NCBI GenBank assembly: GCA_965153455.1
Contig: OZ234493.1
Coordinates: 13,754,213-13,818,212, forward strand
Source: Sphagnum compactum
Taxonomy: Eukaryota
Length of the DNA stretch: 64,000 nucleotides
Direction of reading: 5' to 3'
The notes beneath the pieces are model-generated. The model was not told the DNA's origin and made no database searches. It saw nothing but the letters and a program-made list of their open reading frames with translations. This document shows positions 1-64,000 of this stretch, in pieces; positions within the stretch are counted from its first letter, which is position 1, and every line of letters starts with the position of its first letter. Both the position numbers and the translations under genes were made by a program.

Positions 1-891
1 ATTGACTTGTTTTGCACATCTCTCTTTCTTGGGTTTTTTGAAGTTACATGTTGAAATTTGATATTAGTTTATGAGCTTCCTTGCTGAATACGAATAATTT
101 TGCTTGTTTTTTTGTTGCATCATTTAAATCAACCAATATGGAATGAAATGATATCAAAACAAACTCTTACATTTGGGATTCATTTTGCTATAACAAGTAA
201 AATTAGTGGAAGGAAAATTTGTCAATTGGCATTGACTATGTTCATATATAAAATTTGTAAGGATTGCAACTTTCAATGTAGATTGTGAGTAACTCCAAAG
301 TGGTTTAAATCCAACAACATAATTATTAAAGAATTCTCTTGGACATAATTCTTGTGATTGTGTCCGAATTTTTTAAGAATTGAAACCCTTGCTGGCCATA
401 ATTTGTGGAAAAAGTAGTGAAATGAAAATGAATTAGATTAATTAGGTGGTTTAATTAAAGAACCCAAAATTTGAAGATTTCAATTTTTAACATCACTCCT
501 TGAATTTATTGGCTAATATTCCATCATACCATTATGTTATGATATTCAATTATAGAATTATATTTTGAAACTTACTTTGCATGTAAATGATCTTCTTTTG
601 TGATTCAGTTGACTTTTTGAAAGAAAATTAACAACCCTAAAAAAATTGCAAATATGGGAATGGAATCAAAATTTAAATTTAAATGATGTTGCAAAATGAA
701 TATAGTATTGTTTAATTCATAGATTATTGTCTTGTTCCACTTTACATTTTCAATGAACTATATGTATTTTGTCAAATATTGTGATCGTACACTTCAGGAG
801 TTTTGCATTTCTTTGATTTTATGTAGAATCAAATTATTTTCAAGACTTATTTGATGAATCTTGTTGACATTTATTTTTTTGTCTTTTGCAG

Positions 892-3800
892 AAATATCCG
901 GTGCATGATTTAAGTCCTAATTGCACTTCAAAGAACCTGAATTTGACCATCATTTTTTTCCATGGGATTGTTAAAGGGATTGATGATGATTGGAAGCAAA
1001 CATGGACAACACACCCCATCAATGGTAAAGAAGAATGCATATGTTGGCCACAAATTTGGATCCCAAAGGACTTGAATGACAATGTCAAAATTTTGTTGCT
1101 ATCATATGATTCTAATGTTGTGGCAAGTGTCCATAATGATGTGACTGAAATTGGTCGAAACCTCATTCAAAGCTTGGTTACAAATTCAAGGTGTGACAAT
1201 TTCCTTATGTATTGGCACTTTATTTTTCATTGTGTGTTTCAATTAAAGATAATTGACTGAGTTTTGACATCTTTCAATAAATTGTTCATGTGGAACATTA
1301 TTGTGGTACATTATCTTGAACAATTTGGAACTTTCAAATCCATTGAAGAGAACATGAAATGGGGCTTTGGTGTTAATTCTCATGTTGAGATGAATTCTTA
1401 ACAAAGTTTATGTTCACATTATCAAGTTGTGGGAATCCAATTTGGTTGTAGTGACAATTTGTTACGAAAGTTTTTGAAGTTTCATCTTTGGCACTCGAAC
1501 TAAATTTAATTACCTATATAATTTATTGAATTTGAATCCAATTTGTACCTATATTTAATCTCATATATATATATATATATATCTTACTTCCAATTTCCTA
1601 CATTCTATTATTTGAGTTAAATTGTCAATGTAACACATAAAAACTTATCTATACATTAACACTTGGAAGTGAATGCCTACATGCTTTTGCATAATAACTT
1701 ATTTACCCACATGTGATTCAAACATTTTATATGTAAATTTTTGAAAGAAAATGTAAAATGAAAAATAACTTGCAAACAAATATGTTATGGACTTATGGCT
1801 TAGGTTGTTGTGGTAATTGACAATTTGCACCAAATACAATATATGATTTTGTGACTATTTATACATGTACAGTACCATTAAAAATGTTTTGATGCATTTT
1901 TGGTGCATTTTGAAATATTTTGTAGGTATGAAACGCTTTGGGACAAACCAATAGCAATGGTCGCTTATAGTTTCGGAGGTCTTGTCCTCAAGAGCTTGGT
2001 GGTTGAAATGCACAAACGTGTGCATCAAAAGCAAACGAATAGTTTAGATGTTATAGTACAAAATTGTTGTGAGAAATTTTTGAAAAATCTTAAAGGTGTG
2101 GTGTTTTATAGTGTACCACATGCCGGTGGTACCCAAGATCTATCAAATTATTTCAAGTGGCAAGGTGAACAAATCGACAAGGATACAACCTCGTCAAGTC
2201 TTTTGGAAAATATGGAATCTTTCAACCTAAAAATGGAACACCTTTCAATAGACTTTCACAAATCTATTTGCAAAGACATCAACATCTATGCATTTGCTGA
2301 AGGATTACCTATTGACAATAAATGGGTAAGATTTTGATCTAAATATATTGACTCTCCAACTAGGTTCCATAGTTGAACATTTTTATGTTATATAAACTTG
2401 TGTTGCTTTAAGTTTTGAAACTACTAGCATTAGTTGTGAAATTGGTTTTAAGTTTTCCCTTCTTTGTCCACGAATCCATTGTAACATGTATTCATAGTAC
2501 AAATTGCAAATTCATTGTGAATATAATGTCAATTGAAAGAAACACCTTTGTAGTTTTATTTTAAATTCATTTGTAATAGGATTAAATGAGGTTATGTTAC
2601 AAATTTATTTGATTTCTATAGTTTGAACACAAAATTTAAGTTATTGTTCCAATCATCATTTGGTTGCTACATTACATTTGACATTGTATATTAGGATAAA
2701 TCCAATCACACCAAGGAGTTCCAACTAAAAGAACATTTGTACATGTATAGGGAATTTTAGTGCCAACAACTTCAGCTATTCGATTGTCAAACAATAACTA
2801 TTACAAAGTCCCAGATGCTAATCACTTAACAATTTGCAAGCCACCATCAAAGGACCATCCAAGCTATTCCAAATTATTAGAATGTTTGAAAATTTTTATG
2901 AAGGTAAATAACATTGGTTTTATTTTTTGGAATTATGTATGTTCATCTAATTTGACTACAAACAATACATCATTTCACTTAAATTGCATGCCATATTTTT
3001 TTAGGGTATTATCCATTATTTGATTTTTAATTTTTTGGGTGAACTTTGACAGGAAAAAAATACACCACCTATGCCACCTTTGCCATGCTATGAGGTGGCG
3101 TTGGAAGGTAAAGCAAAGGCCATAAATAGTTTGTTACAAAAGGAATCTATTGTTGCATTGATTGGAATGGGTGGGATTGGGAAGACCACTTTGAGTAAAA
3201 AAGTGTATCATTTGTTCCACAACCAATATGAAAAATCTAGCTTCTTAGAAGATGTGAAATCAAAAGACATCAATGATGTCCAAAAAAAACTTCTACAAGA
3301 TTTATGTGATATAAATTCACACAAGTATGAAAATGTTGATAAATACCTCGATAGAATCAAGGAATGCATGATATCAAAGAAAGTTTTGGTGGTTGTGGAT
3401 GATGTTGGTACGATGAATAACCTTGGAACCTTGCAACTTCCTATTGACAAGCATGCCACTCATGTAGATTGCAAGAGCAAAATACTTATAAATTGTCGAA
3501 ATTGGCAAATATTGAAAAATCATGTAAGGGAATCCGCAAAAGTAGACATGGCATTCTTGGAAGAAGAACAAGCAAGGGAACTTTTCATGTTCCATGCATT
3601 CAAACATGCAAATTGTGTGATAAATGATTTCAAAAACATTTCTATGGAGATTATAGAAGCTTGTGGGGGCCTCCCTTTAAGCCTTGAAATATTGGGTTGT
3701 TATTTGTATGATATTCGTGATTTGGAAATATGGAAAGATGCATTGTGCGAATTGAAAGGTGGACGAAATATAACAGGGGGCTCTGACAATGAAATGCTTT

Positions 3801-5686
3801 GGAAAACTTTGCGAATTTCTTATGACCACTTGGATAAAAAACATCAAGAAATGTTTTTGGATATTGCTTGTTTTTTCATTGGTTTCAAGAAAAGTACGTT
3901 TTGTCGAGTGTATTGGAATGGAGATGATTCACCGAGCCCTATGTATATATTAAAAAACTTGGAAGATAGATCTTTAATCAAATGGGTAGAAGATGGCGGC
4001 TTGTACATGCATGAACAATTGCGAGACATGGGTCGAAATATTGCAACGGAAGTTACAATGAATCGATTTATATGGAAACCAAATATATCTTTGCAAAATA
4101 ATCAGGTTTGAGCAACATGCTAATGCAATCCTATGGTATTTTTTTTGTCAAAATTCCAAATGAACTATAAATCTTAGTTTTATTTAAGGAGATGTAATTT
4201 TTTTCATTAAAAACATAGCATTAGAATGAAATTTTATTTTTATTGATGTTGACAATTGTTTGTAATTGGTTTGATGTGATAGGTGGTGAAAAATCTAGAA
4301 GGCATTTCTTTTGAAAAATGTGAAGTTTTGCCTTCATTTTTTCAAAATGGCTCAAAGGAATTTCACAACCTTAGGTTACTTGACCTCACAAAAGCTTCAC
4401 CAAATACGGTGGAAATTTTCATCCAAGGTCAAGATTTGAATAACCTTCGATGGTTGTGTCTCCAAGAATGCATGATCCAAAAGTTGCCAAGTAATTTGTT
4501 TAATTGTTGTCACTTACTAGTACTCCATTTAACGGAATGTAAGTTTTTGGTTTTTGATATTTCCAACCATGACTTTAATATGTCAATATGTGATAAAATG
4601 AAAGAATTATCTACATCTATTGGCAAATTGAATGCACTCTTAGAGCTTAGTTTGTCGGGGTGTTCAAGCTTACAAGAATTACCGACATCTATTGGCCAAT
4701 TGAATGCATTCCAAAACCTTAATTTGTCATTGTGTTCCAGCTTGCAAGAATTACCTACATCTATTGGCCAATTGAATGCACTCCAAAACCTTCATTTGTC
4801 ATGGTGTTTTAGCTTGCAAGAAATACCTTCATTTATTGGCCAATTAAGTGCACTCCAAAACCTTCATTTGTTAAGGTGTTCGAAGTTGCAAAAATTACCT
4901 ACATCTATTGGCCAATTGAATGCACTCCAATACCTTAATTTGTCATGGTGTTCCAGCTTGCTAGAATTACCTACATCTATTGGCCAATTGAGTGCACTCC
5001 AAAACCTTGATTTGAATAATTGTTTAAGCTTGCAAAAATTACCTACATCTATTGGCCAATTGAATGCACTCCAATACCTTAACTTGTCATGGTGTTCCAG
5101 CTTGCAAGAATTACCTACATCTATTGGCCAATTGAATGCACTCCAATACCTTAATTTGTCATTGTGTTCCAGCTTGCTAGAATTACCTACATCTATTGGC
5201 CAATTGAGTGCACTCCAAAAGTTTGATTTGTCAGAATGTTTGAGCTTCCAAGAATTACCTACATCTATTGGCCAATTGAGTGCACTCCAAAAGTTTGATT
5301 TGTCAGAATGTTCGAGCTTGCAAGAATTACCTACATCTATTGGCCAATTGAATGCACTCCAAACCTTTGAATTGAATGAATGTTCAAGGTTGCAAGAATT
5401 ACCTACATCTATTGGCCAATTGAATGCACTCCAATACCTTAATTTGTCATGGTGTTCCAGCTTGCAAGAATTACCTACATCTATTGGCCAATTGAGTGCA
5501 CTCCAAAAGTTTGATTTGTTAGGGTGTTCGAGCTTGCAAGAATTACCTACATCTATTGGCCAATTGAGTGCACTCCAAAAGTTTGATTTGTCAGAATGTT
5601 TGAACTTGCAAGAATTACCTACATCTATTGGCCAATTGAGTGCACTCCAAAAGTTTGATTTGTCAGAATGTTCGAGCTTCCAATAA
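892..5686 (+). CDS. Alpha/beta-hydrolase-NB-ARC-LRR immune receptor (HNL-type NLR), gene 1; 5' start not located
   Basis: In-frame exons 892-1190, 1926-2325, 2751-2903, 3053-4105, 4283-5686 with GT/AG boundaries (about 1102 codons). Hydrolase motifs FFHG, CWPQIWIP, AYSFGG, NHLTICKP. NB-ARC P-loop GMGGIGKTT, kinase-2 VLVVVDDV, GLPL, MHE. About 15 LRRs of 24 aa precede the TAA at 5684-5686. No ATG follows the acceptor at 890-891, so an upstream exon is needed. Confidence 0.9.
1564..1581. repeat. (AT)n microsatellite in an intron of gene 1
   Basis: Run of about 9 AT units. Confidence 0.8.
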
Positions 5687-7390
5687 TTACCTACATCTAT
5701 TGGCCAATTGAGTGCACTCCAAAAGTTTGATTTGTCAGGGTGTTCGAGCTTGCAAGAATTACCTACATCTATTGGCCAATTGAATGCACTCCAAACCTTT
5801 GAATTGAATGAATGTTCGAGCTTGCAAGAATTACTTACATCTATTGGCCAATTGAGTGCACTCCAAAAGTTTGATTTGTCAGAATGTTCGAGCTTGCAAG
5901 AATTACCTACATCTATTGGCCAATTAAGTGCACTCAAAACCCTTGATTTGAACAATTGTTTAAGCTTGCAAGAATTACCTACATCTATTGGCCAATTGAG
6001 TGCACTCCAAAAGTTTGATTTGTCAGAATGTTTGAGCTTGCAAGAATTACCTACATCTATTGGCCAATTGAGTGCACTCCAAAAGTTTGATTTGTCAGAA
6101 TGTTTGAGCTTGCAAGAATTACCTACATCTATTGGCCAATTGAGTGCACTCCAAAAGTTTGATTTGTCAGAATGTTTGAGCTTGCAAGAATTACTACGTC
6201 TATTGGCCAATTAAGTGCACTCAAAACCTTTGATTTGAACAATTGTTTAAGCTTGCAAGAATTACCTACATCTATTGGCCAACTGAATGCACTCCAAAAC
6301 CTTAATTTGTCATGGTGTTCCAGCTTGCAAGAATTACCTACATCTATTGGCCAATTGAGTGCACTCCAAAAGTTTGATTTGTCAGAATGTTTGAGCTTGC
6401 AAGAATTATCTACATCTATTGGCCAATTGAGTGCACTCCAATACCTTCATTTGAACGATTGTTCGAGCTTATAAGAAATATCTACATCTATTGGCCAATT
6501 GAATGCACTCCAATACCTTAATTTGTCAAGGTGTTCGAGCTTGCAATAATTACCTACATCTATTGGCCAATTGAGTGCACTCCAAAAGTTTGATTTGTCA
6601 GAATGTTTGAGCTTGTAAGAATTACCTACATCTATTGGCCAATTAAGTGCACTCAAAACCCTTGATTTGAACAATTGTTTAAGCTTGCAAGAATTACCTA
6701 CATCTATTGGCCAATTGAGTGCACTCCAAAAGTTTGATTTGTCAGGGTGTTTGAGCTTGCAAGAATTACCTACATCTATTGGCCAATTGAGTGCACTCCA
6801 AAAGTTTGATTTGTCGGAATGTTTGAGCTTGCAAGAATTACCTACATCTATTGGCCAATTGAGTGCACTCCAATACCTTCATTTGAACGATTGTTCGAGC
6901 TTATAAGAAATATCTGCATCTATTGGCCAATTGAATGCACTCCAATACCTTAATTTGTCAAGGTGTTCAAGCTTGTAAAAATTACCTACATCTATTAGCC
7001 AATTGAGTGCAATCCAAAATCTTAATTTGTCAAGGTGTTCAAGTTTGCAAGAATTACCTACATCTATTCGCCAATTGAGTGCACTTCAAAACTTTGATTT
7101 GTCAAGGTGTTCGAGCTTGCAAGAATGACCTACATTTATTGAACAATTGAATGCACTCTAAAATCTTGATTTGAACGATTATTCAAGCTTACAAGAAATG
7201 CCTACATGTATTGGCCAATTGAATGCACTCAAAAACCTTAATTTGTCGAGGGGTTTAAGCTTGCAAAAATTACCTATGTGTATTGGTCGATTCAATGCAT
7301 TTCAAGCTTTCATTTTGTTGAGGTGTTTGGCTTGCAAAAATTACCTACATCTATTGAGGAATTGAATGCATTTCAAAAGCTTAAGTTGTT
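4610..7390 (+). repeat. Tandem 72-bp LRR-coding array (about 38 units)
   Basis: Near-invariant core ttgcaagaattacctacatctattggccaattga(a/g)tgcactccaa repeated every 72 bp. Confidence 0.95.
5687..7390 (+). pseudogene. Out-of-frame/decayed LRR units downstream of the gene 1 stop
   Basis: 1-bp deletion near 6194 (ttactacgtc vs ttacctacatc); stops at 6472, 6547, 6616, 6904, 6976 and later; divergence increases 3'-ward. Confidence 0.9.
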
Positions 7391-8859
7391 TATTAAATGT
7401 AGATTATAATGTGTAGGATTTTAAGCAAAACTAGAATTATATATTGCGTCAATAAGATTTCATTCATTTTGAATTTTTGTACAGATCACATAAAAATGAT
7501 TTGGGTTTGAAAACAAAAATATGTTATAAAAACATGAATATCTAATTGATTCATTATTGCATTTTTATATTGTAAATGCAAATCAATAAATTTATAAAGA
7601 TTTAAAACCCTTGCATGACAACATTTTTTATTAATTTTGAAAATCTAATTTATTTTTGTCAAATGATTAAAAATATATTTAGCCCAAGTACATATGTAAT
7701 GGAAGAACATTTTACAACCTCAAAAATTCATAATCATCAACATTATCATAACATAATGTAATAATGGACAAAATTTTAATTCATATGATTGATTTCCATG
7801 ATTCAAGAAATTTGGAAAGCTTTGATGGGGAAGATTGTTTTTAATGGTTGCCTTTATATTGGTAAAATTTCATAGACAAATTTTCATTAAATTTGGTACT
7901 TGACAATTAATTTATTATAATAATGATGAATCTTAAAGGCCTTACAAATCAAAATATTTTTTTTGAACAATTAAATCATTAATATGTGCACCAATTCCAC
8001 AACATAATGACAAGTTAGGATATAAACCATCACCTATTGCAACTTTTCAAGGTTCGTTCACATTGAAAGTTCCAAAAAGAATGTTTAACTTTTCAAGGAT
8101 TTCAAAGCCTAACTCTGAGTTTTTATTTTATCAAAATGATAACAATTGCAATGTATTTTTGTATGTTAATAAATAAAATGATGTCTTATTATAGTAATAA
8201 TTTTTTAAATTTATTTTGGACATTATGTAAGTGTCTTTCTAAAATCTTTAAACTAAATATATTAATTGTTTTAAACTTCATTTTTTGAGTAATCAAAAGG
8301 AATGTAAAAAATCATGCAAATTGATTTCAAATTTTTTGTACAAAAAAAACATGTTTTGTTTAAAGCAAGTATGTGTTCATTGGGTGAACTTCATGAAAAA
8401 AATATCATATCAAAATTTCAAAGGCTTGGAATTTTGTACCAAATGGTTGCAAAGGAGAATACTCATTAGTTTATACTAATTTGCTAGTTGTTTATGTCCA
8501 TTAAGCAAAATTTTTAGTTTGAAATATAGGTCATATGTGTACTTGTAAACCAAACTGTTGATACACAATTATGTATGCGTGTGAAAAATCACTAGCACCA
8601 CATGAATTATGTTATCTTGGGTTATTCAATTTTGCTTACTTAATTTTGTTCCATGTAAATGTTAGTTTTAACAATAGCCTTAAAAAATGTTGGATTTTTA
8701 TTCATTTTTTTGGAACTCAAATTGTGAATGAACCCTTCATAAAAACATGTAACCTAAATATCCACCATCATGCATCAAATGTGGACAAGTGTTCAAAATA
8801 ATCAAATTGTGATAGTATTTTGTCTACATTGTATACGTAGCTTGCATTCGCCTTGTCCA

Positions 8860-14038: not shown

Positions 14039-16686
14039 TGAGAGGAATTTTTTGCACACCTTCAACATACAGATATGCACTCACAAAACCCGCTTGGAAG
14101 TGGATCTACTATGTAGATGTAGTCTAACAAGTACGGTGGTTCAAGGTAATGCAATGAAGCTCACTAAGATTTTAATGCGTTGTGTCCACTTGGAAGATAC
14201 AAAGACATTATGGGAGAATTGTAACTCACCATGATGGAATATGAAGGGCATTATGTTGACGTTCATTCAATGTCACGCTTGATGGTTGAACCCTTTTTGT
14301 TCCATTCGTCATAACATCTACATACAACCTCCTACTCTAACATGCATTGGATTTTTGAAAAGGCTAATCTAAAAGGAGCCATGTTACTCTAATAAGTTTA
14401 TTTTTAATTTTTTTAATCAAGAGTTAAGCCTTGGGACTAAACATCACTTTGCTTAGATTGAGGAAAAAATAGACAAATTCAACCTCCTCTACTTCCAGCA
14501 AGTGTAGCTCCCTTACAACATACCCGATGATGCTGAAATTTGAAAAAAACCTTTTACACCTCCTAAACAAGAACTCTTTAAAGTTTGACACAAATCAAAC
14601 GGTGGATTTGGGAGGAACAACTATTTGAAATAAAACTCCAGAGACTTTGTCATGGAAATCCTTCCATGAACTCCACTACAAACACCCTCTACTTCCGGCA
14701 AGTGTAGCTCCCTCACAGCAAACCCGATGATGCTGAAATTTGGAGAGAACCTTCTACACCTCCTAAACAAGAACTCTTTTAAGTTTGACATAAATCCAAC
14801 GGTGGATTTGGGAGGAACAATTATTTGAAACAAAACTCTAGAGGCTTTGTCATGGAAATCCTTCCATGCTTATTTCTTGCACACATCCTTTTCATGAATA
14901 ACACCCTTCCACACATAAAAACTAATCTTTTCCTCACACATTCATTCTCTTCCTTTCCGGTTCCATACATACAAGATATTCCTCTCTCCCTTAGTAAACC
15001 TTCATGACCTTCCTTGAGCTTGTTCCCCTTGACAAATGGAAGCTTTGAAATCCTTCCCTCCAATCAATGGCCTCTTCATCCTTTAAGAACCAATGAGAAT
15101 TGAAAATGATTTGCCCTCCAATTGATTTTAGGATGAAAATTTTTGGGCCCAATGAAACAAAAAAAAATTCCATCCTCTAATCAAATAGGATGACAATCCT
15201 CATGACTAATGGGATTGGAGGACTCATCTTTCCCCTTATCTTGGATATCTTGATGAGGTTCTTGAGCTTGATCCTTATCCTTTCCGTTCGTTGACCCTCA
15301 CATCCTACTTTTTCATCCTAATTATTTCAAGTAACTAAAAACTATGACAATTTATCGATAGTAACAAGTAAACATCCTTGAGTCCTTACTTGACTAAATC
15401 AATTCAATGGTTGAAGTAACATCCCCGCGTACCATTTACTCTTTTGATATCCCTTATTTTTTCTTCCATGCACTAATTAACTATGTAGTACATAGTAAAT
15501 TGGAATTAAAATTTGCATCACAAAAACCCCCACATACTCCTAGATCCACCGTTGAAATTAGAGTTCGATGAATCCATTAGATCTAGGATGTTCTAGTTTT
15601 CATGAGGTTCCGCCGTCACTCCCACACCTTACACCTACCCTAATTTGTTAAATAAAAAGGCCTTGACCCCTTCTAAACGCAAATACCACATTGTTTTTAC
15701 TACCCTCTGTTTTTGTTGATGCAGGTAATAATTTAATCATGGCGGATGATGTGACTGCGCTTTTGAATCCTCCAGTTGCACCAGTAGACAAGGAAGAGCT
15801 TGAAGAAGCACCGCTTAACGAAGTAGCGATTGAAGTGAATGTCTCTCAACGGTCGTGCGAAGAAGAACCATCCAAAAAAGTGGTGTGCATTCAAGTAGAT
15901 CGTTCGGCATGGGATCGTCGATTGTCTCCTAACCCACATGCCTTAGCAATTTATTTATAATTCGTTCCCGCTCGAAAAACCGCGCCAGAAAGGTTTGAAT
16001 AGTGTCAATGTGAAGACGACAATGTTCGTCTTCATTGTCGAACTTGGGTTCCCGATGATGGCCATTATTGTTGGCTACGAGGCCCAATTAACGCCCTTTC
16101 CATGGAGCATCAAGCCGAATATCTAGCTCGCACCATTCGTCGCATTCTGGAGTTTTTGCAATTGTGATCTATTCCTTTAAAGTTGTTTACTAAATTGTAA
16201 TTCACTTGAGGCCACTCAGGTGGAAATGTTAATACTTAAGTTTGATTTTGATTCTATCTAAGCGTCTGATAGAAGTGAAGACTAAATAAAGATGTATCAG
16301 GACTGCACCCTAGAAATCTTTCCAGTACATCATTTGTGCTTGACGATTATTCTACAGACTAACTTAATATTGTCATGGCGAAATGTTATTGTTAGTTATG
16401 GGCTTGTATTCCCAATATATCAATAAATCACATTTAATTCTATATCCCCTTTCCCTTCTCTACAACATAAAAGGATAATGCACTTAAAAAGGTTTACTAG
16501 GTTCTAAAACTAACTAAGCCTTGCATCAATTTAAATAAAAGAGTTTTCTACGCTGAAATATCCAAAGGCTAATCCAACTCTTAATAATTATTATTTGGAG
16601 GTTTATCAAGATTCAAATCATTAATACTAAGGAAAACTATGGAACTAAGGCTTAAAAATTTGTGGTATTATAATCCATGGCTCACA
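14039..16686. mobile_element. 2.65-kb solo-LTR-like insertion interrupting the CACTA transposase
   Basis: Begins TGAGAG and ends CTCACA; flanked by ctatt (14034-14038) and ctact (16687-16691). Removing it plus one flank copy restores the transposase frame IIPGSSSVKSSNFDVYLAP. Confidence 0.8.
14480..14870. repeat. About 200-bp tandem duplication within the solo-LTR-like insertion
   Basis: ctacttcc(a/g)gcaagtgtagctccc...ggtggatttgggaggaacaa...gtcatggaaatccttccatg occurs twice. Confidence 0.85.
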
Positions 16687-19600
16687 CTACTCTTCACACT
16701 ACTCGATCCAGGGATTATCATTGAGAACAACAAGAAAAACTTTTTGGTCACCAACCAAGGTGGAAGGTTATAGTTCAAGAACAACACAGGTGAAATTGAC
16801 CATGCATTGCTATTTTCCCCAAATGGATTCACTCCATTTGTGGCAAGCCCCAATCTGACATTTTTGGGCTCAACCCCAAATTCTAGCCAAGTCCTATCAA
16901 TGTAGACCCAAGCCTTAATATCAGGCACATGACAAATCTTCCCATCTGTGCTCTTATTTCGGCTATGCCAAGTCATGAGTTCAGCAATTTTTTGAACTCC
17001 AAACATGCGCAATAGCCTAGGAACCAATGGAAAATGTCGAATTATTTTAACGGCTACATTTGATTTGCCATATGCCTTAAAGCGTGCTGACCTACACTTT
17101 GGACATGTTTCCAACGTTTCATATTCCTTTCGAAACAACATACATCCATTAACACATGCACCTATGTTATTGTATTTCAAGCCTACCTTGCTATTTAAGG
17201 TTTTAGTTGCGTACATTGTTGGTGGCAAACAATTATCTAGTGGTAATAAATGCTTGTGAAATAATGCTAATAGTTCATCAACAAACTTGTTGGAGACACC
17301 ATGCACCTTGCAGACGTTCATCAACAGGAGTGTGGCTGCTAGCATTGATGACATGGCACCACTGTATAAGGGTTGGCATGTTTTTCGCAAGTATTGACCT
17401 TCACTAAAAATGTCTTCATCAAGGTCTTCTGTAAATCCTTCATGGTTGTCTCCTATGTTTCCTTTTGCATTGCCTTCATCTTGCCCTGTCATGCTCTCCG
17501 GCATAGCTGCCAACTCTTCCATGACATCACACACCTCTTGGACCATGCCAATTCCATCTTCCCTTGAGTTCGGGTTCAAGTGAGCATTCTCCATGCCTAC
17601 TTCAACATCTGGAGCTAGGAATAGATCATCTAAAAGTTATTCCATGTGGACACCTTCATCCACCAACTGCCTTGCTGTTTGTAATGACCCTTTAGTTACT
17701 GCAACCCATTCTTCATCAGAGCCATTGATTTCCCCTGGGCCTTTCCAAACTCTATACAAAGAGTGCCTACCATTCAAGATGAGGTGTCTTCGAACTGTGT
17801 CAAGCAAGATTGGCCTCCCCTTTCCTGCGCACTTATTACACGGACATCGCATTTTAGTCATGCCATGTTGTTGGGCCCATGACAACTCTCTAGCCCATAA
17901 CTTGTCATCCCTAGTGTAAGCCTAAAAGGATCATCTAGTTGCCTCCTGCCACTTGCCATGTTTTATCACTAATAGAAGTCTTTATTTTTGTGTGGTTTGC
18001 ACTATCACAATATCAACCGTTGGACCATTTACACGCATCCAACCAAAAAGGACAATGTAGCATCCGCCCACTCTCGTTGCAGTTGCATCTTGTTTAGCAA
18101 GCATGGGCAATCCAACATAATTGAATTGGCTCTATAGAAATGGATTGGATATAAGGAAAAAATATCTCTCCAAGTTTCATTAGAAGGAAGGTTTAAAGTT
18201 TTATTTCTCTCCATCCATGCATTTGAACAATAACTACAATGACATGAATAGAAATTAAGAATTTACACTCATCCTTCCTTTCAACTACACTCTTTTGTTT
18301 TAGACATATTCCAAATAAATTGATTAATCTAAACAATATAAGTGGCAACAATTGGATGTACCTAGAAACTTTTTGAATAATATAAGTGGCAACATGCAAT
18401 TGGATGTGCCGTGACCAAAGCATATCCGAAGGTAAGGTTGTGTGTGAATTCACCTCCTTGTGCTATGTTCCACATCCCTATGGATGGCTCCAAGTAAATC
18501 TGTACATGCAAGATAAAAGATTTCCCAAAGCATGGGATACTATTTTATGTGAAAAGAAGGAAATTTGGACTATTATGCCACTATGGTCACAAGGATGTCA
18601 ACCATCTCTTGGCTTTGAATAAAACACAACAAACCAACAAATGAAACATACCCCCATGTTTGTGTGTCATCCAACATTGGCGTCACCAATTGTGGGCAAC
18701 AATGGCTTTGACAACATATCAATGCCTACCACTTGCACACCCAACATAGAAAATCCAACATATAATTGCAAAAGTACCTGACATCTCATGACCTATCAAA
18801 TTATTTGAACAAGAAATGCATCACAAACAACAATATACCACAACCTCATGGAATATTAACACGAAGTATCCTTTGAATATTTCTTCCCAATTGAATCCTT
18901 GGGAAACAATAGACAAGTTTAGACATTAAATTCATTTTGATGAAGTCCAAGACTAGAATAAATCCAAAAGGGAAACTTGACTTGGTTGACTTGATCACGC
19001 TTGCTAATGAATCATGATATTGAGTTGTGGACACATTTAGAAATTATTTTCTCAATCATGCAAGAAATATGGTAAAAGTTGGTTAGTAGTTCCTTCTTGC
19101 AAACATATCCACAATGTCCATTACAATTCACAATTGGCTATCCTAACATACTTTACATGCTTGTAATAAGAATGGTGCCACTCAACTATGTGTAAACATA
19201 GAAAGATCAACAATCTACTAGCAAATCTTATCCCTAGTACAACTTCCAGTTACCAGTCCAAATCCTCAAAATGTAACTAGTTTACACACATGGCCATATT
19301 TTCACTTCTCCCAATAGACTGTTCAATGATTGGCAAAGATAATATCCAAACACATAAACACACAAAGGGTTGATGCCTCATGTAAAGGCTATATATCCTC
19401 ATTTTATAGTTTCCAAACAAGAACTTCGAGATAGGAAAAGACCTAAACCATCAACAATAACAACAACATCCACTATGATGAAAAAAAATTCACCTTGCCA
19501 AAAGGCATAATGTATTAGAAGGTAACTTTTGGATTGATAATGCTACAAAACTCAGTCCCCTTTCTTGTAGTTGCAATACGCAACTTCCACCTCATTGTCC

Positions 19601-51159: not shown

Positions 51160-54100
51160 ACGTTCGTTTCGGACTAGAGAGTCCATTAGACGAAAGGTAG
51201 ATCATGGAGGACATATTGTCCTCTAGTACTGGCAGCATGCCACAAACTTGGCCAGGGCGACCGTGTTCATGGTCTGCATGAGCTCAACAACAGTGCAAGT
51301 GTGGGTGAGGGGCAGGGCCGAACAAAAGCGTTCCCTAACTTTCTGTGTGTTTGGACAAACAAGAAGCAAATGTTCTTCATCCTCAACCTTCCCCAAATTG
51401 CGGCCTTGACAAAGCCTCTCTGCGTATGGCACGCCCTTCCACACACCTAGCACTACCTCAAGCTGCGTGTTGCCACACCGAAATTGGGACAGAGCTTTCC
51501 GCAGCTGAACACAGCTGATGTCACACAAGTAGTTTTCGCTCTTGTACAACATATCTTTGAAGCGCAAGTATCTTGTTTGCACGTTGGTCTCGATCTCGCG
51601 GTTGATAAACAGCTTTTCAATGTAAGCCAGCCGCATATTATCCTTCACCTTTTTACACTCAATATTGTGTGGGGAAAACCTGGAGGGGGTGGGGCCCCAG
51701 CCTCCTGGTTGATCGGGCCTCCTGTCGTAGATCTAGCACCAATCGGCTGCATTAGTTGTAGCGCGGTCAACTTAGCCATCTGAACTCCCACCCGTACGTT
51801 GTGTGCGTTGCACCAAAATACTTGGCTCTCCGCCCAGCCTTTCACCCCTGCTAGACAGGTCGTATGTATGTGTGTTGTCCCATGAACCGTTCCCAGTGGC
51901 GGTTGAGCAGTCCTCGCCTGAAGCGCACGAGTCGTTGCAAGCTTAAGCGCCATTTCCAATGATGGTTGAACCGGAGGCAGAAAATCTGCCACCTCCTGGG
52001 GTTGATTCTTGAGTAGCCATTTTTTCACGGATCTAGCCCAGCATTTCTTTCCCGCAGCAAGCATAGCGAGCTGGGCTTCCCATGCCTTTCCCAAGATGCG
52101 GTCTTTAGTGACCGTGCTCACATGGTTATAGTACAACAACGCTTGTCCCCATGCAAAGTGTTCAAAGGGGAATTTGTCAAATTCTGCCAGCATGATGGAC
52201 GTGCTGGTTGTTTTTCGCACCTCGAGCACGGACTTGAGGAACCTTCGATACACTATTTCAATAACCTTTATTTTCTTGGAGTCCACCCAAACCTCACAGG
52301 CATAGCTTGCTGTGGAACGCACCAACGTGTTGAAGAGGTCACAACGTAATTGGACGTCCCTAATACGTAGCTCCGTACAATGGCGGTTTAGTGCGAACAG
52401 TGAGCGCTTACTGGCAGTTGTTAGATGTTCCACTACACTGTCTAGGTTTGAGGTGGTTTCGAGCAGGATCCCCAAGTATTTGAAGGTCTGCACACGTTCA
52501 ATAGTGTCACCTTCAAACACAAACTCTTGGCATGGGTTAGCAGAGTTGAACACCATGACTTTTGTTTTTTTCACGTTCATTGTGAGTCCACGTTCAACAC
52601 ACAACTGCTGGAACGCGTCTAACTGTTGTTGCAGTCCCACCTTTGATTCCGACGTCAGAGTAAGGTCATTTGCAAAAAGCAACAGCCATACGTGCACGTC
52701 TGCTAGGGCCGATGCATCGCATTTTCTGCCATTTAAGCACCCTTCCAAGGCATCCAAATATAGCCCAAACAGTAGGGGGCTGAAAGGGCAACCTCGCTTC
52801 ACACCTTCCTGGCACCTAAAGATGGAGGTGACACCCTTGCTTGGGTGGTTCATGCGTACGGTATCCTTGGCATACATCGCCTGCAGGCATCGCAAGAAAC
52901 GTCCCTCCACCCTGAGGCCAGCCAACACCTCCCACAGCACTTCACATGGCACAATATCAAACGCCTTTTTGAAGTCCACAAAGCAACAATAGAGTGGCTT
53001 CTTTTTTGCCTTGCTCTATTCTATTAGAGTTTGCAGCATGAAGAGTTGGTCTGTAGTGGGGTAATTTTGCGAAACCCAGCTTGACCTTTGGCACGCAGCC
53101 CATGTTGTTCAGCCCGCTCGCTTAGCCTTTTGTCAAGGATCATAGCGAACAATTTTGCTAGGATAGGCCCAATAGTTATCCCCCTGTAGTTGTCAAATTT
53201 GGAGGCATCGGCCCCTTTAAAGAGCATGTGGACCACCCAAGTGGAAAGGGCTTTTGGAAAGTTTTCTGCTAGAAAGCAGTTAAACGACGTTAATAGTGGC
53301 ATGTGTAGCAGCTCTCCCGCATCCAAAATGAATTCAGCTTTCATATCGTTATATGGATGGCGGAGACTAGCAAACTAGCATGCGGAAGCCTTCCAAAAGC
53401 ATGGCTACATTGATTTTGTCCACAACGGGTACTTTTTCTAGATTGAGAGTGCATCCACCTTGGTAAGCGTACACATATGTTGAGCTCTTGTAGTTTTCAA
53501 GAAAATTCTTTTCCTTTGTAATAACTTTTTAAGTTTACTTTCCTGATGTTTAGCGACGTGCGAATCGGGGTTGGCTTTCAGCCAGAACCTCAGCTCATGT
53601 TTCGCTATACGGCAGTCAGCGTCAAACCATGGTTTATGGCAGTGTCTCTCTCTGCAGTTTCCTCCCAAAGGCTTGTTGCCAAAAGTAGACTTTGCTGCAG
53701 CACCCATGCAATGCTGCAGTAGGTTAGCTAACCCGTCTGCCCCCAGATGCCCAATTGAGTCAACAACCCAGAGGTTTCCAAGATTCGCTATTAGGGCAAG
53801 TTGATACTCTTCAGCTTTCAATTTATCATATTTGAACCTAGGTAAAAAAAAATTTGTTACAATTGTATGTTATGGCTCAACAAAGCTACAATCGATGTTC
53901 GACCGTAGGCATAACGGCCTGTGTTCAAAGTCTCCCCTCATTGCGCAGTAGCGGGTGTCATCTCCTATCACCTTGAGGTGTCTAGCAACTTGCCAAATTG
54001 TAGGTGAGCCAACAATATAATCGACAATGCTACGCCCCCCATTTGCAAGCAAGTGAACTCCCCTTATTCGTCACCAGGTGTCCAGCCATTGAGGATGAGC

Positions 54101-57544: not shown

Positions 57545-58265
57545 GTCAGATCGGGCGACCGCCTTGCAAGCTGACGAAGAGGCGAACCACGACCACTACC
57601 CGCCACTGTCTGATGTTTGCGCTCTCGTACTGCATCGATCCAGCTAGCACAGTGCACTGCATCTTCTTTTGCTGCATCGAGATCTGGCGCCCGACCTACA
57701 AGCTGACGAAGAGATGAAGCGCAAGCGCGACCCCAACGCCTTCTGGTGTGTGCGCTACCAAGCTATACCGATGCAGTAGGCTGCATCTTTTTTCTCATCG
57801 AGATTTTTCCGCCCCCCTGCAAGTTGACGAGTAGACTAACCATGACGGCAGACCCCCTCGCCTTCTGGTGTCTATACTACCGAGCTAGACGGATCCAGCT
57901 ACGTTGCACCTTCTTTTTCCGCATCGAGATCAGTTCCGTCCCGTAAGCTGACAAAGAGACGAACCACGACCGCAGAACTCACCGCCTTCAGGTGTGCGCT
58001 ACCAAGCTACTCCGATCCGGCGAGGTTGCACCTTCCTCTTCCGCGTCGAGATCGGGCGGCCGCCCCTGCAAACTGACGAAGAGATGAACCACGGCCGCAG
58101 ATCCCATCGCCTTCTGGTGTGTGCGCTACCAATCTAGGCTACACCTGGTTTTTCCGCATCGAGATTGGGCGCCCGCCCCTGCAAGCAGATGAAGACAAGA
58201 ACCAGGACCGCAGACCGCACCGCCTTCTGGTGTGCGCGCTACCAAGCTACAACGATCCAGCCCGC
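57545..58265. repeat. GC/CpG-rich tandem array, 6 units of 113-132 bp, just upstream of NLR gene 2
   Basis: Units start near 57566, 57698, 57819, 57943, 58068, 58181 with caagctgacgaagag..cgccttctggtgt..ctaccaagcta..catcgagat. Confidence 0.9.
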
Positions 58266-58676
58266 ACACCGCGCTGCACCTGACGGACCCCAGACCGCAC
58301 CACGTTTTTCGCCCGCGCATATACTTAGTGAAGGAAGGCGCAGCCTGTGGGCGACGTGCCATCTCTCATCAGTTCCTAATTCTACCTTACGAATCTAATC
58401 TCTGCTGCACAGAGTTGTGCAGCAGTTTCACAACGCGTAATCAGGCCAACTCTTCTGCAATCTCGTAAATCGTACTCATACCCACGAGTGATGGGGATTT
58501 CTTTCCGCCAGATCGTTTTGGTGCATCGATTCTTGAGCAAAACAACATTCCCATCAACAATCCTAACCGTTGCATCGACACTCCTAATCGTTTTTTGCAT
58601 CCACACTTTTTTGTTCCGAAAGTGGCGAGGGCAATCAATTGTTTGTGAGGGTAAAATTGGGGTTTTCGATGTGCAG

Positions 58677-61600
58677 ATGTGTCCCGTGACACAAGTATGG
58701 CCACCCGACGACTACAAGGGTCCCATTCATTTTGACGTCGTGTTCTTCCACGGCTTCCAATTCGGGCAGGATGCACACAACATGTGGAAAACCACATGGT
58801 CGACACGAAATCGCCCAGAAACATGTTGGCCCCAAGAATGGTTGGGACCACAATTGGGCAACAATGTCAGAATCTTGCTCCTCTCCTACGATGCATATGC
58901 CACCAAATCCAAGTCGCATGAATTTGGAAATACTGAAGATGTTTCACATATTGCAAAGAATTTGGTGCAAAGCGTGGTGACCAGGTTTGATTAAGAACCT
59001 ATATTTGTCTGCTGCAATATTTCCAACTATTTTTTATAACGATTGCGTGGATTTAGGATTTAACACACACAAATTAGTTATATTCTAAAATTACAAACTA
59101 GGTATTAGAAATATGGGTGCTTCAAATATGTTGTAATTTCTTGAAGCATGCCTTTGTGGAAGACAAAGGGTCGAGGAGTTTAGATCCAAACTGTAAATTC
59201 CATTGTAGATTGTTCTTTTTAATGTGTTTATGTGCAAGCTACAAGTGTTGTGGACTTGAACATACAAGAGGCATGTACTTGAACTTGTGGGATGTACCAA
59301 ATTTGCAGTGAGCATAGATCTTAGCATATTGATTGTTGAAAGAATGCCACACCTGGCTATTATGTGATTATTTAATTTTGTGCTTGTTTGATCTTGATCT
59401 ACAGTTCCAAGTGGAAGTTGGGCCAAGAACACCCCTTTGTGCTTGTAGGGCACAGCTTTGGTGGTATTGTCATTGAGAGCTTGGTCACTGAGATTCATAA
59501 GATATCTCAACAACAACATTGTGACAATCTAGAGAAAATGGGTGTTCAAAAGGCAAATGTTTTTTTAAAAAATATGGCAGGGGTGGCCTTTTATGCTGTA
59601 CCACATGTTGGGTCAAGGCAGTTAATTGAATATATTTGTAGACAATGTGAAATCAATTTGCACTCCAAGCACTTGGCCAAAGTCAAAGCAATCATCTTGG
59701 AAAATATTGATTCCTCCATATCCAAGGCAGCAGATTTATCAAATGATTTCTTTAATACACTTGCAAGTTGCACAAACGCTTATGGTGTTTATGTTTTCAT
59801 CGAAACCAGACCTATTGATGATAATGTGGTAAGTAATGAGCATTGTCAATTGTGCAATGGATGATGGTTAGCATTCAAACACTATTGTATAGAAACTTAA
59901 TAGGATTGGAATATATTTGGTTTTGCAGGGTATGATTGTGGAATATGGACCAGCCCAAATTCCAGGACACAAATGTTATAGAGTTGAAGGTTGTGATCAT
60001 TTCAGCGTTTGCAAGCCACCTGATCAAAACCATCCAAGTTATAATATGCTTTTGCAATTTTTGGAGGGGTGTCGAAAGGTAATAACTGTTGGCCAACTTA
60101 CAATTACTGGAGATTAATATTATTCAGAATTGAATATGTTGATTTGCCAATGTCCATGTTGATTAGCAATTTGTCAAATTGATTAATGTTTATGCTTTCA
60201 ATGTTCTAGCATAGAAGAAGTTGCAAAGTTCATGTAGCATGTTGGAATGCACCAAATGGATAAGGCAAATTAACAATTTCAAATGAGACCAACCCAAATT
60301 GAAAGATCTTTTGCAATGTGCATATTTTTCATCAAAGCACATTGTACATATACTGAACTTAAGGAATCTTAAACCTTTTCACCCAAAGGCCAACCTTGGG
60401 GCAACCTTCATATATTTATATTTCTAGACTCCTCTTGGGGTTTCATGGATCTCACTTATTGTTTTTGTCAATGAAAGTTGATTGTAGTTATAAAAAATTC
60501 AGAGCTTAGAAAAGATAGATTGTAGCTTGTAGTATTAATGGGCAAAGTTATGGCAATGAAAAGTTTATGCTTTTCTTTTGTATTTATCAAAATACAAGTT
60601 ATGGGTTGCAAGGATTAAATGAGTTTGTGTTGACGTAGGATTTTTTATTGAAGCATGCAAGCCTACCGAAATTGCCAAAACTTGTGATTGGGCTCGATGA
60701 AGCTATTGCCAATGTTAAGGGGAAAATTGTGGACAACCATATGCTAGCGGTGGTTGGAATGGGTGGGATTGGGAAGACAACTTTGGTGAAGAAACTTTAC
60801 CATCAAATACATGCTGATTTTAAGAAATCAAGTTTCTTGGAAAATGTCAAAGAAAATGACATTGTGAAAGTTAAAAAGAAAATCATCATGGATTTACGTG
60901 GCTTGAAATTAAAGGATCCTGAAAATTTTCTTAGATATTTTGAAGAATGTTGGACAGAAATGAAAGTACTTGTGGTCATTGATGATGTTAAAGAGACTCA
61001 AATAATTGAGCTATTTGGCGAAGACATAGTTAGCATCAAAAGAAGTGAAAATGGCAGTAGAGTAGTTATGACAGGACGAAATTGGAAAGATTTTGAAAAT
61101 GTTACACCTAAAGGTGGAAAGTTTGAAATGGATGGACTCAATGAAAACCAAGCAATGAAGCTTTTTTCTTGGAAAGCTTTTAGACAGTCAACACCTCCCC
61201 ATGATTTTGCATCCATAACAAGTGAGGTGGTTGATGCATGTCAAGGGCTACCATTATCCCTTGAGGTCACGGGTTCTTGGCTCTCTACCAAAAGAAATCT
61301 ACAAGAATGGAAAGAAGGTTTATCACGGTTGAAAAATGTAAAACCTTTTGGTGGGGATCGTATTGAAAATGATAAGCTTTGGGGGCGACTAAGGATTTGT
61401 TATTTTGACCTAGCCTATGAAGAACAAGAAATGTTTTTAGATATTGCTTGTTTTTTTTCAGAATACAACTCAAAATTTGAAACGGGGGTCACAATTCAAA
61501 AAGCATTACAAATATGGAAGGTCTCGTCGCAATATTCATCGATGAGTAGTTTGCAAAATTTGAAGGATAGATCACTTGTCAAGGTGAATGACAAAGGTAA

Positions 61601-63771
61601 TTTGGTGATGCATGATCAATTACGTGATATGGGTCGACAAATTGTAAAAGAAGTTTCTAGTAATGAACGCGGTAATCAAAGTAGGATTTGGGACGAGGAC
61701 GAAGCAAGAATGGTCCTTCTCAATGAGACGGTAATTCCTTCATCTTTAAATGTTCATCAAACTTTTAATTGTACACATTGGTGATTCAATCAACATTGTG
61801 TGAACTGTTGGATGTACATATGAAAATCTAACTCAATTCATGGTACTACATATAAATTAATGATGCACTCTCTAAACTAATCTGGTATGGTGCTTTGTTG
61901 GTTTTTAGGTCACTTCAAATATTCAAACCATTTGGTTGCCCGAAAATCTAGAACTTCCACAACAAGTAGCAGCATCAAAATTTCACCAAATGAGAAAATT
62001 GCGAATGCTCATCATGGAAGGAGCTAATGAAACATTCATACAATCTTGTCTCGGACAACATTTCAACCAATTGAAATGGCTCGTCATAAGTTCTGACATG
62101 ACACAACTTCCTGAATCAATGCAACACCTTGTTGGTTTAACTGTTTTGCAATTGCAAACTTGTGAAAACCTATTATACATACCAAAATTTCTCATAAACA
62201 TGACTTTGTTAATGCATTTAGACTTTGACGACTGTTCCAAACTGACTTCACTACCAACAACAATTGGTGACTTGAAGCATTTGACCAAACTAAATTTGGG
62301 AGGATGTTGGAATCTTAAGGAGGTTCCTCAAACCATTGGAAACAACTCTTCATTATCAATATTGGACTTATCTTATTGCCAATCCATTCAATCACTACCA
62401 ACAACAATTGGTGACTTGAAGCATTTGACCGAACTAAAGTTGGGAGGATGTGAAAATCTTAAAGAGGTTCCTCAAACCATTGGAAACATCTCCTCATTAT
62501 CAATATTGAACTTATCTTATTGCCAATCCATTGAATCACTACCAACAACAATTGCTGACTTGAAGCATTTGACCAAATTACTATTGAGAGAATGTGAAAA
62601 TCTTAAGGAGGTTCCTCAAACCATTGGAAACATCTCCTCATTATCAATATTGGACTTATCTTATTGCAAGTCCATTGAATCATTACCAACAACAATTGGT
62701 GACTTGAAGCATTTGACCAGATTATGGTTGGAAAGATGTGAAAATCTTAAGGAGGTTCCTCAAACCATTGGAAACATCTCCTCATTATCAATATTGAACT
62801 TATCTTCTTGCAAGTCCATTGAATCACTACCAACAACAATTGGTGACTTGAAGCATTTGACCAAACTAAAGTTGGAAGGATGTGAAAATCTTAAGGAGGT
62901 TCCTCAAACCATTGGAAACATGTCCTCATTATCAATATTGAACTTATCTTATTGCCAATCCATTGAATCACTACCAACAACAATTGGTGACTTGAAGCAT
63001 TTGACCAAACTAAAGTTGGGAGGATGTTGGAATCTTAAGGAGGTTCCTCAAACCATTGGAAACATCTCTTCATTATCAATATTGAACTTATCTTATTGCA
63101 AGTCCATTGAATCACTACCAACAACAATTGGTGACTTGAAGCATTTGACCACATTACTATTGGGAGGATGTGAAAATCTTAAGGAGGTTCCTCAAACCAT
63201 TGGAAACAACTCTTCATTATCAATATTGGATTTATCTTATTGCCAATCCATTGAATCACTACCAACAACAATTGGTGACTTGAAGCATTTGACCGAACTA
63301 AAGTTGGGAAGATGTGAAAATCTTAAGGAGGTTCCTCAAACCATTGGAAACATCTCCTCATTATCAATATTGGACTTATCTTATTGCAAGTCCATTGAAT
63401 CACTACCAACAACAATTGGTGACTTGAAGCATTTGACCACATTATGGTTGGAAAGATGTGAAAATCTTAAGGAGGTTCCTCAAACCATTGGAAACATCTC
63501 TTCATTATCAATATTGAACTTATCTTATTGCAAGTCCATTGAATCACTACCAACAACAATTGGTGACTTGAAGCATTTGACCGAACTAAAGTTGGAAAGA
63601 TGTGAAAATCTTAAGGAGGTTCCTCAAACCATTGGAAACATCTCTTCATTATCAATATTGGACTTATCTTATTGCAAATCCATTGAATCACTACCAACAA
63701 CAATTGGTGACTTGAAGCATTTGACCGAACTAAAGTTGGGAAGATGTGAAAATCTTAAGGAGGTTCCTTAA
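58677..63771 (+). CDS. Alpha/beta-hydrolase-NB-ARC-LRR immune receptor (HNL-type NLR), gene 2 (about 1278 aa; start could extend to 58491)
   Basis: In-frame exons 58677-58984, 59405-59828, 59929-60078, 60639-61730, 61909-63771. Hydrolase DVVFFHG, CWPQEWL, GHSFGG, DHFSVCKP. NB-ARC GMGGIGKTT, VLVVIDDV, GLPL, MHD. About 21 regular LRRs. Confidence 0.93.
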
Positions 63772-64000
63772 ACCATTGGAAACATCTCTTCATTATCAAT
63801 AGTGGACTTATCTTATTGCAAGTCCATTGAATCACTACCAACAATAATTGGTGACTTGAAGCATTTGACCACATTATGGTTGGAAAGATGTGAAAATCTT
63901 AAGGAGGTTCCTCAAACCATTGGAAACATCTTTTCATTATCAATATTGGAGTTATCTTATTGCGATTCCATTGAATCACTACCAACAACAATTGGTGACT
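62245..64000 (+). repeat. Tandem 144-bp (two alternating 24-aa LRRs) array, continuing past the stop to the window edge
   Basis: SLPTTIGDLKHLT-x-L-x-L-xx-CENLKEVPQTIGNISSLSIL(N/D)LSYC units; CAA to TAA at 63769-63771, then further units. Confidence 0.95.

Follow-up and report, generated by a model that had tools for sequence, protein, structure and literature searches.

What kind of gene is built from leucine-rich repeat (LRR) units that are nearly identical except at a few codons, and how would such units arise? The question is raised by a 64,000-nucleotide stretch of the Sphagnum compactum genome (contig OZ234493.1, positions 13,754,213 to 13,818,212 of the forward strand; this whole stretch is called the window), near the end of which lies a tandem array of 144-bp units. 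The array forms the last part of a spliced gene encoding hydrolase, NB-ARC and LRR domains. It is probably the sensor of a germline-encoded, expressed receptor of the Hyd-NLR/HNL class (NLR: nucleotide-binding LRR receptor), in which modules of two LRRs are duplicated, lost and exchanged and selection diversifies the residues of the concave face. The same design recurs across a family of related loci.

Array layout and variable positions

Tandem Repeats Finder delimits the array with a period of 144 bp, 12.2 copies, 93% matches, 0% indels and a score of 2946. It comprises 12 full units and 25 bases of unit 13, and the array runs past the window end at 64000. When cut at 62248, all 12 full units (12/12) are in the frame of the open reading frame (ORF) 61909..63771. 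Each unit encodes 48 residues, that is, two 24-residue LRRs, with the consensus SLPTTIGD-LKHLTKLKLGRCENLKEVPQTIGN-ISSLSILDLSYCKSIE; the two 24-residue halves of this consensus are alike at only 8 of 24 residues. The features of the array are:

62248-64000, + strand: 144-bp tandem array, found by Tandem Repeats Finder, with its units listed
63769-63771, + strand: in-frame TAA at codon 28 of unit 11, which ends the 1278-residue frame; the other 11 units have CAA at this codon
63772-64000, + strand: untranslated "ghost" units that keep the frame and register: what remains of unit 11, all of unit 12 and the first bases of unit 13

Mean pairwise identity among the 12 window units is 93.0% in DNA (range 87.5-97.9%) and 87.8% in protein, and 29 of the 144 base columns are variable. 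Eight residue columns vary recurrently, meaning in more than one unit: 14, 16, 18, 19 and 21 in the first LRR, as well as 33, 40 (D/N) and 45 (Q/K). The five in the first LRR are the x positions of the pattern T-x-L-x-L-x-x-C-x. Together the eight columns account for 309 of the 386 pairwise residue differences. An average pair of units differs at 2.3 of the 120 bases of the scaffold (the other 40 codons), compared with 7.5 of the 24 bases in the eight variable codons. The proportion of silent sites that differ (pS) in the scaffold is 0.048, meaning that silent sites are nearly identical.

The variable columns coincide with the predicted surface of the solenoid, taken here as the 12 positions of LxxLxLxxCx, counted over the two LRRs of the unit, that by textbook rule face the solvent. 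Recurrent variability is found at 7 of these 12 positions and at 1 of the 36 others (Fisher p=7.7e-5). With singletons counted, the figures are 8 of 12 and 7 of 36 (p=0.004). An AlphaFold2 model of the LRR exon, run on the single sequence (mean predicted local distance difference test score, pLDDT, 83.6, and above 90 along the array), places beta-strands at unit positions 14-18 and 38-42. Nei-Gojobori estimates of nonsynonymous and synonymous divergence (dN and dS) are 0.011 and 0.050 for the 40 scaffold codons (dN/dS 0.22), so the scaffold is constrained, and the five variable codons of the first LRR have a dN of 0.49, about ten times the scaffold dS. An array of units with variation focused on the predicted beta-strand face is thus confirmed as real and far from chance.

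Most of this anatomy had been anticipated by a sequence-only reading of the locus. It described 144-bp units nearly identical even at silent sites, an alternate LRR toggling between N/D and Q/K, and variation concentrated on the beta-strand surface rather than spread evenly, for which it proposed per-site dN/dS as a check; the 93% matches, the scaffold pS, columns 40 and 45, the surface counts with the modelled strands, and the excess of dN in the variable codons all agree with it. The nine strand motifs that it listed are all present, with TELKLGRCE common to units 8 and 11 and TTLWLERCE to units 9 and 12, and the list left out TKLKLGGCW of unit 6. Its end point for the array, 63771, is the in-frame TAA and had to be moved, as the array continues through unit 12 into unit 13 up to 64000. 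The second receptor gene of the window (868-7392) and the moss host had also escaped it.

The receptor gene and its relatives

The array is part of the last of five exons, which are:

58677-58984, + strand: exon 1, start of the alpha/beta-hydrolase domain, with the ATG at 58677; tblastn match to P0156, a protein of S. balticum (95% over 58677-58982), and a joint in RNA reads
59405-59828, + strand: exon 2, hydrolase core with the GHSFGG nucleophile-elbow motif; 89% match to P0156, RNA joints on both sides
59929-60078, + strand: exon 3, last part of the hydrolase domain; 78-88% matches to P0156 and P0121 (P0156 at 78%), RNA joints
60639-61730, + strand: exon 4, NB-ARC (P-loop GMGGIGKTT) and Roq1-like winged helix, from Pfam; phase-0 introns on either side
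61909-63771, + strand: exon 5, LRR domain up to the TAA, with about 113 residues of divergent LRRs followed by 10.6 array units; ORF, Pfam LRR_14, AlphaFold2 and RNA joint 61730/61909

All introns are of the GT..AG type (58985-59404, 59829-59928, 60079-60638 and 61731-61908), and each joint is present in 30-48 polyA RNA reads. The exons joined from the ATG at 58677 form an unbroken 1278-residue frame to the TAA, and the introns 60079-60638 and 61731-61908, which mark both domain borders, are in phase 0. The RNA evidence consists of raw polyA RNA reads of one run, aligned to 58300-62247, and the read depth runs on to 62247. Reads are already found over 58300-58676, with loose read ends at 58312 and 58677, so a 5' untranslated region or an upstream exon begins at or before 58300. 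There is also a sharp pile-up of reads at 60751-60785, over the stretch coding for the P-loop, with 311 and 350 loose ends on its two sides. It most likely consists of reads from many other NLR paralogs with the same short motif.

The ORF 60639..61784 contains Pfam NB-ARC (PF00931, E=5e-28) and WHD_ROQ1 (E=6.8e-14), and the closest solved chain to the NB-ARC exon is Roq1 (E=9e-31). In the LRR exon Pfam LRR_14 (PF23598) was detected with E=1.6e-86; Foldseek searches with the LRR model returned generic long LRR solenoids only (SHOC2, RGFR1 and plant LRR receptors). Pfam searches of the single hydrolase exons of the window found no domain above the cutoff and only a sub-threshold Peptidase_S10. 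The hydrolase domain was assigned because these exons match P0156, which passes the Abhydrolase_6 cutoff (27.9 bits, cutoff 26.3). By every sequence-level feature tested, the gene is a hydrolase–NB-ARC–LRR receptor of the Hyd-NLR/HNL class. If it works as its family suggests, the hydrolase domain would signal, the NB-ARC domain would switch and the LRR solenoid would sense; an immune function comprising effector recognition and cell death may be supposed on the same grounds.

The NB-ARC exon has 869 relatives at E<=0.001 among 4374 scored candidates, the best at 90% identity, and among the best 120 every match with an organism name belongs to a Sphagnum species. The best named matches of the LRR exon are in S. 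magellanicum, S. jensenii and S. balticum, followed by the moss Ceratodon purpureus. The arrays of these annotated Sphagnum and Ceratodon proteins keep strictly to a spacing of 48 residues and have an internal identity of 71-92%. Both LRR halves contain variable columns, which in the Sphagnum proteins include the strand positions 14-18. In P0121 of S. magellanicum the units at residues 580-867 alternate between TQLRS.AC...LSYCRSIE and TELRL..C...LSSCMSIE, which points to a possible 96-residue higher-order repeat.

A scan of metagenome contigs yielded 60 loci, among them the relatives L001-L038 (59-83% identity). The profile built from the window units detected units in all of these relatives (38/38) and in the window, with spans of about 0.6 to 39.6 units, several of these arrays being clipped by contig ends. 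The same profile matched no units in L039-L043 (about 30% identity), and L044-L060 were excluded from the unit search as unrelated LRR proteins. Some of the related arrays are very long: 39.6 units in L001 (3391-9093), 34-39 in L010/L011 and 32 in L019. In L001, 32 units are open ahead of the first stop, and a two-unit block is duplicated at 4255-4542 and 4543-4830.

Arrays with at least 6 stop-free in-frame units numbered 18, and removal of the duplicates L011, L014 and L027 left a family set of 15 arrays with 238 units. Within-array residue diversity in this set is highest at positions 14 (0.69), 16 (0.66), 18 (0.70) and 43 (0.67), followed by a tier formed by 19 (0.45), 40 and 42 (0.39), and 21 and 45 (0.35). 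The proportion of nonsynonymous differences (pN) is above the scaffold pS at 14, 16, 18, 19, 21, 42 and 43, with ratios of 1.0-3.0. On the scaffold columns the nearest neighbour lies in the unit's own array for 150.8 of the 238 units, compared with 18.4 by chance, and for 10.8 of 11 units in the window array. A scaffold-only FastTree phylogeny needs 79 changes of array label; 500 shuffles gave a mean of 180.8 and a minimum of 171.

Exchange, uniformity and the in-array stop

In the mechanism favoured here the 48-residue modules, each of two 24-residue LRRs, would stack into a regular solenoid. Unequal crossing-over or gene conversion would add and remove modules and move sequence between them, both within the array and, probably, from one paralogous array to another. 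Such exchange would keep the scaffold nearly uniform, silent sites included, and selection for new binding specificities would maintain and renew the differences at the solvent-facing beta-strand residues 14, 16, 18, 19, 21, 40 and 45, where a ligand would be bound on the concave face. The nonsense codon within the array would set the C-terminus, with untranslated units behind it.

Signals of exchange are present in the window array. Among pairs of informative sites 58 of 120 are incompatible, and close sites are more compatible than distant ones (pairwise homoplasy index, PHI, p=0.0005). The test was also run with each codon as a single character, so that a codon with several variable bases counted only once; incompatibility was then seen in 7 of 19 near pairs as against 19 of 26 far ones (p=0.022). 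Codons 14-16 are mutually compatible and conflict with codons 18-19. Codon 16 or 21 is incompatible with codon 45, and the states at these codons differ by 2-3 bases. Only between the first-LRR block and the second-LRR codon 45 is the case for exchange firm.

The silent state of codon 15 (CTA or TTA) tracks the state of codon 16 in the window array, and this linkage recurs in the other arrays with the window excluded (counts [[50,2],[13,20]], p=6e-9), so at least some variable motifs are old haplotypes common to several arrays. Other states are private to the window array: TGG at codon 21, CAA at codon 45 and CTA at codon 16. The scaffold silent divergence of the window array is 0.054 internally versus 0.068-0.253 to the 14 other arrays, and the window array is the most uniform of the arrays compared.

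Stops within arrays are common in the family. In the 35 related arrays that could be read to a stop, as in the window array, the first in-frame stop lies inside the array span, in most of them with further units behind it. In four arrays the first stop falls at codon 28 (CCT TAA ACC): unit 11 of the window, unit 33 of L001, unit 11 of L006 and unit 3 of L015. The window stop unit is up to 97.9% identical to its own array versus 88-91% to the stop units of the other three, and common descent and recurrence of this stop cannot be separated. Unique base changes number 6 in 204 bases after the window stop versus 11 in 1521 before it (Fisher p=0.010), and this excess fits relaxed constraint behind a real stop.

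Several observations weigh against the mechanism proposed above. The frame of the window gene terminates at a nonsense codon within its array, and stops occur in 98 of 468 gap-free units of the related loci and the window; many members of the family, possibly including the window gene, may be decaying. Most variable states are joined by single-base steps, and because the states of codons 14, 18 and 19 are one base apart, recurrent mutation can explain the half-motif mosaics within the strand. The sequence-only reading had attributed these mosaics to intra-array recombination. The PHI signals speak for recombination in the array, but the mosaics need none and may in part be recurrent mutation. 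Its further suggestion of concerted evolution fares similarly. The internal silent divergence of the window array is the lowest found, but the values of 0.07-0.22 within most other arrays are no lower than their divergence from the window, so strong homogenisation is not a family-wide feature. In addition, a single clade of window units was rejected: the scaffold-only tree requires 7 label changes for the 11 stop-free units, which lie close to the family consensus. Recent expansion is therefore indistinguishable here from homogenisation that is still going on, and it explains the uniformity of the window array equally well. Other points concern the data. The related arrays come from short-read metagenome contigs, in which chimeras and assembly errors are possible, and the unit count, the unit order and the TAA of the window array are those of the assembly, the RNA reads having been placed on 58300-62247. 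Among the 1404 aligned RNA reads, 411 are at least 99% alike and 993 are 95-99% alike; transcription is thus shown for the window gene or a very close relative.

Many of these points would also follow if the array were a recent tandem amplification in a truncating gene or pseudogene, its uniformity reflecting youth and its variable positions being inherited, with no current selection or homogenisation. This is an unlikely explanation overall, and yet the in-array TAA with more units behind it, the first stops inside related arrays, the frequency of units with stops and the position of the window units near the family consensus, outside any clade of their own, all agree with it. The array of the second receptor gene in the window, described below, is clearly broken, and this too would be expected. 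Unit similarity does not decay with distance; lags 1 and 3 are not significant, and a weak signal at lag 5 (p=0.014, uncorrected, three lags tried) suggests block duplication. Amplification in a pseudogene is harder to reconcile with a constrained scaffold (dN/dS 0.22), with the presence of spliced transcripts, and with codons 16 and 21, whose states differ by 2-3 bases when silent sites differ by about 5%, a pattern hard to reach neutrally. Some of the variable states are private to the window array, and the low rate of unique changes ahead of the stop indicates that the translated part is still constrained.

Mosses have efficient homologous recombination, and peat moss grows clonally from haploid tissue. 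Diversification could be imagined as somatic or within-clone, by cassette assembly resembling that of variable lymphocyte receptors (VLRs) or by frequent mitotic homologous recombination in the haploid moss. Nothing direct favours such a process, though the units behind the stop could act as donors (the motif of unit 12 equals that of unit 9, and the two units are 95.8% identical). The array is complete and contiguous in one spliced, expressed germline exon, and in four related loci the unit order is identical between samples over 26, 9, 7 and 4 shared units. Somatic diversification is accordingly very improbable, and VLR-like assembly, to which the sequence-only reading drew a conceptual parallel, has no support. 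A variant would regard the untranslated units as a silent cassette store that swaps variable beta-strand patches with translated units by homologous recombination, so that exchanges and shifts of the stop could give heritable receptor variants within a haploid clone. The sharing of TTLWLERCE by units 9 and 12, the extension of both window arrays and most related arrays beyond their first stops, and the variable-motif haplotype with a linked silent site common to several arrays are all compatible with it. This idea is speculative and probably wrong; if true, it would be a germline-plus-clonal analogue of pseudogene-templated diversification.

An assembly artefact, in the form of an over-expanded or mis-ordered repeat, has to be considered because tandem repeats that are 93% alike are hard to assemble. 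Among the sequencing runs the best one contains 0.46 of the sampled words from 60600-64000, and none reaches half. The differences between units are, on the other hand, ordered, codon-respecting and without indels, and the same design recurs both in metagenome data, at 38 independent loci, and among the annotated proteins of Ceratodon and four named species of Sphagnum. Where contigs from different samples overlap, their unit order is concordant. There is hence very little reason to suspect that the array was created by assembly, and a germline-encoded receptor with a modular, diversifying sensor is the explanation that probably holds.

Known systems and the second receptor gene

The HNL/Hyd-NLR class has been reported in bryophytes including Sphagnum (Xue 2012, PMC3352924; Chia 2024, PMC11218826), and Hyd-NLRs in Sphagnum are mentioned by the latter. 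As in the HNL genes described by Xue 2012 (PMC3352924), introns at the domain borders of the window gene are in phase 0. The window gene shares with the class the order of alpha/beta-hydrolase, NB-ARC and LRR domains, and its NB-ARC domain most resembles the TIR-NLR type (Roq1). The internal organisation of the LRR region, with its 48-residue modules, uniformity, in-array stops and range of unit numbers, is not described in the accessible parts of these two papers (PMC3352924, PMC11218826).

Highly uniform repeats are well known from fungal NLRs, which the sequence-only reading named as a parallel. The het-e/het-d/nwd repeats have about 85% or more protein identity within a gene (PMC4986451), compared with 87.8% in the window array. 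In both cases the variable sites lie on the binding face (predicted for the window array), and in the fungi they are positively selected; concerted evolution and repeat reshuffling were proposed as drivers (PMC4986451). The repeats of fungal NLRs are WD, ANK or TPR, and no LRR was found in the survey of Dyrka 2014 (PMC4986451), so the window repeats fall outside the fungal repeat types. Polymorphism in repeat number between alleles has been shown in fungi (PMC4986451), whereas the moss range of about 1-40 units is one of paralogous arrays. The nucleotide-binding domain also differs, being often NACHT in fungi and NB-ARC in the window gene. The fungal repeats are a fair functional analogy.

In flowering plants, the LRRs of tomato Hcr2 proteins alternate between two types, and the rice Xa1 repeat unit has about 93 residues. 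The variable LRR region of Hcr2 (Cf-2/Cf-5) evolves by intragenic recombination, with varying numbers of 24-residue LRRs and near-identical nucleotide repeats (PMC7468133). These are extracellular receptor-like proteins without NB-ARC, whereas the window gene has NB-ARC in the same spliced frame. Alleles of Xa1 are NLRs with central tandem repeats in the LRR region, the substructure of which differs among alleles (PMC7748011); they have a BED-domain N-terminus, are confined to grasses and carry far fewer units than the window array. Since repetitive LRR-coding regions are known in flowering plants (Hcr2/Cf-2, Xa1), the contrast that the sequence-only reading drew with angiosperm NLR LRRs was overstated.

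The lamprey VLRs resemble the window array in being modular LRR solenoids with diversity on the concave face (predicted for the window array). A germline VLR gene is incomplete and is completed in somatic cells with cassettes that flank it. The window array, in contrast, lies complete and uninterrupted within a single exon of a spliced transcription unit and gives no sign of somatic change, and no flanking cassette bank was found upstream of the array within the window, beyond whose end the downstream side lies. Overall the window array works like the fungal, Hcr2 and Xa1 systems and is a member of none of them. Among open-access papers and preprints no paper on arrays of this kind in moss NLRs was found, and supplements of NLR surveys may list such features. 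This is a known evolutionary mode (fungal repeats, Hcr2/Cf-2, Xa1) that apparently has not yet been described for moss receptors.

The window contains a second hydrolase–NB-ARC–LRR gene at 868-7392 (+ strand), 39-44% identical to the first. Its LRR array (4602-7389) has a period of 72 bp, corresponding to a single LRR, with 38.8 copies and 85% matches. The first 15 units are intact, and unit 16 opens with a TAA at 5684 in place of its first codon. After it come 7 in-frame units, a frameshift near 6190 and about 16 more units. Variable residues are found in the LxxLxLxxC positions, with the recurring motif types QKFDLSEC, QYLNLSWC, QTFELNEC and KTLDLNNC. A 448-residue open frame at 4864-6210 (- strand), antisense to this array, is most likely a by-product of the repeats and not a gene. 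Between the two receptor genes lie transposon remnants at 16668-17636 (- strand; tnp2-family transposase fragment, E=1.2e-24) and 51645-53015 (- strand; reverse transcriptase, E=2.1e-20). Just 5' of the first receptor gene, at 57674-58261, is a G+C-rich 113-bp tandem repeat with 4.8 copies and 70% matches.

Recognition domains of plant NLRs are usually irregular, which makes comparison between single repeats difficult. In the present receptor family the sensor is a near-perfect modular solenoid of a few to about forty modules, in which nearly all variation is found at a few defined positions. If confirmed, the mode of evolution of the fungal WD/ANK/TPR receptors and of a few flowering-plant genes would also act on the LRRs of an early-diverging lineage of land plants. 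Mosses would then be a natural system for reading how binding surfaces form and renew, and the regular scaffold could serve LRR design.

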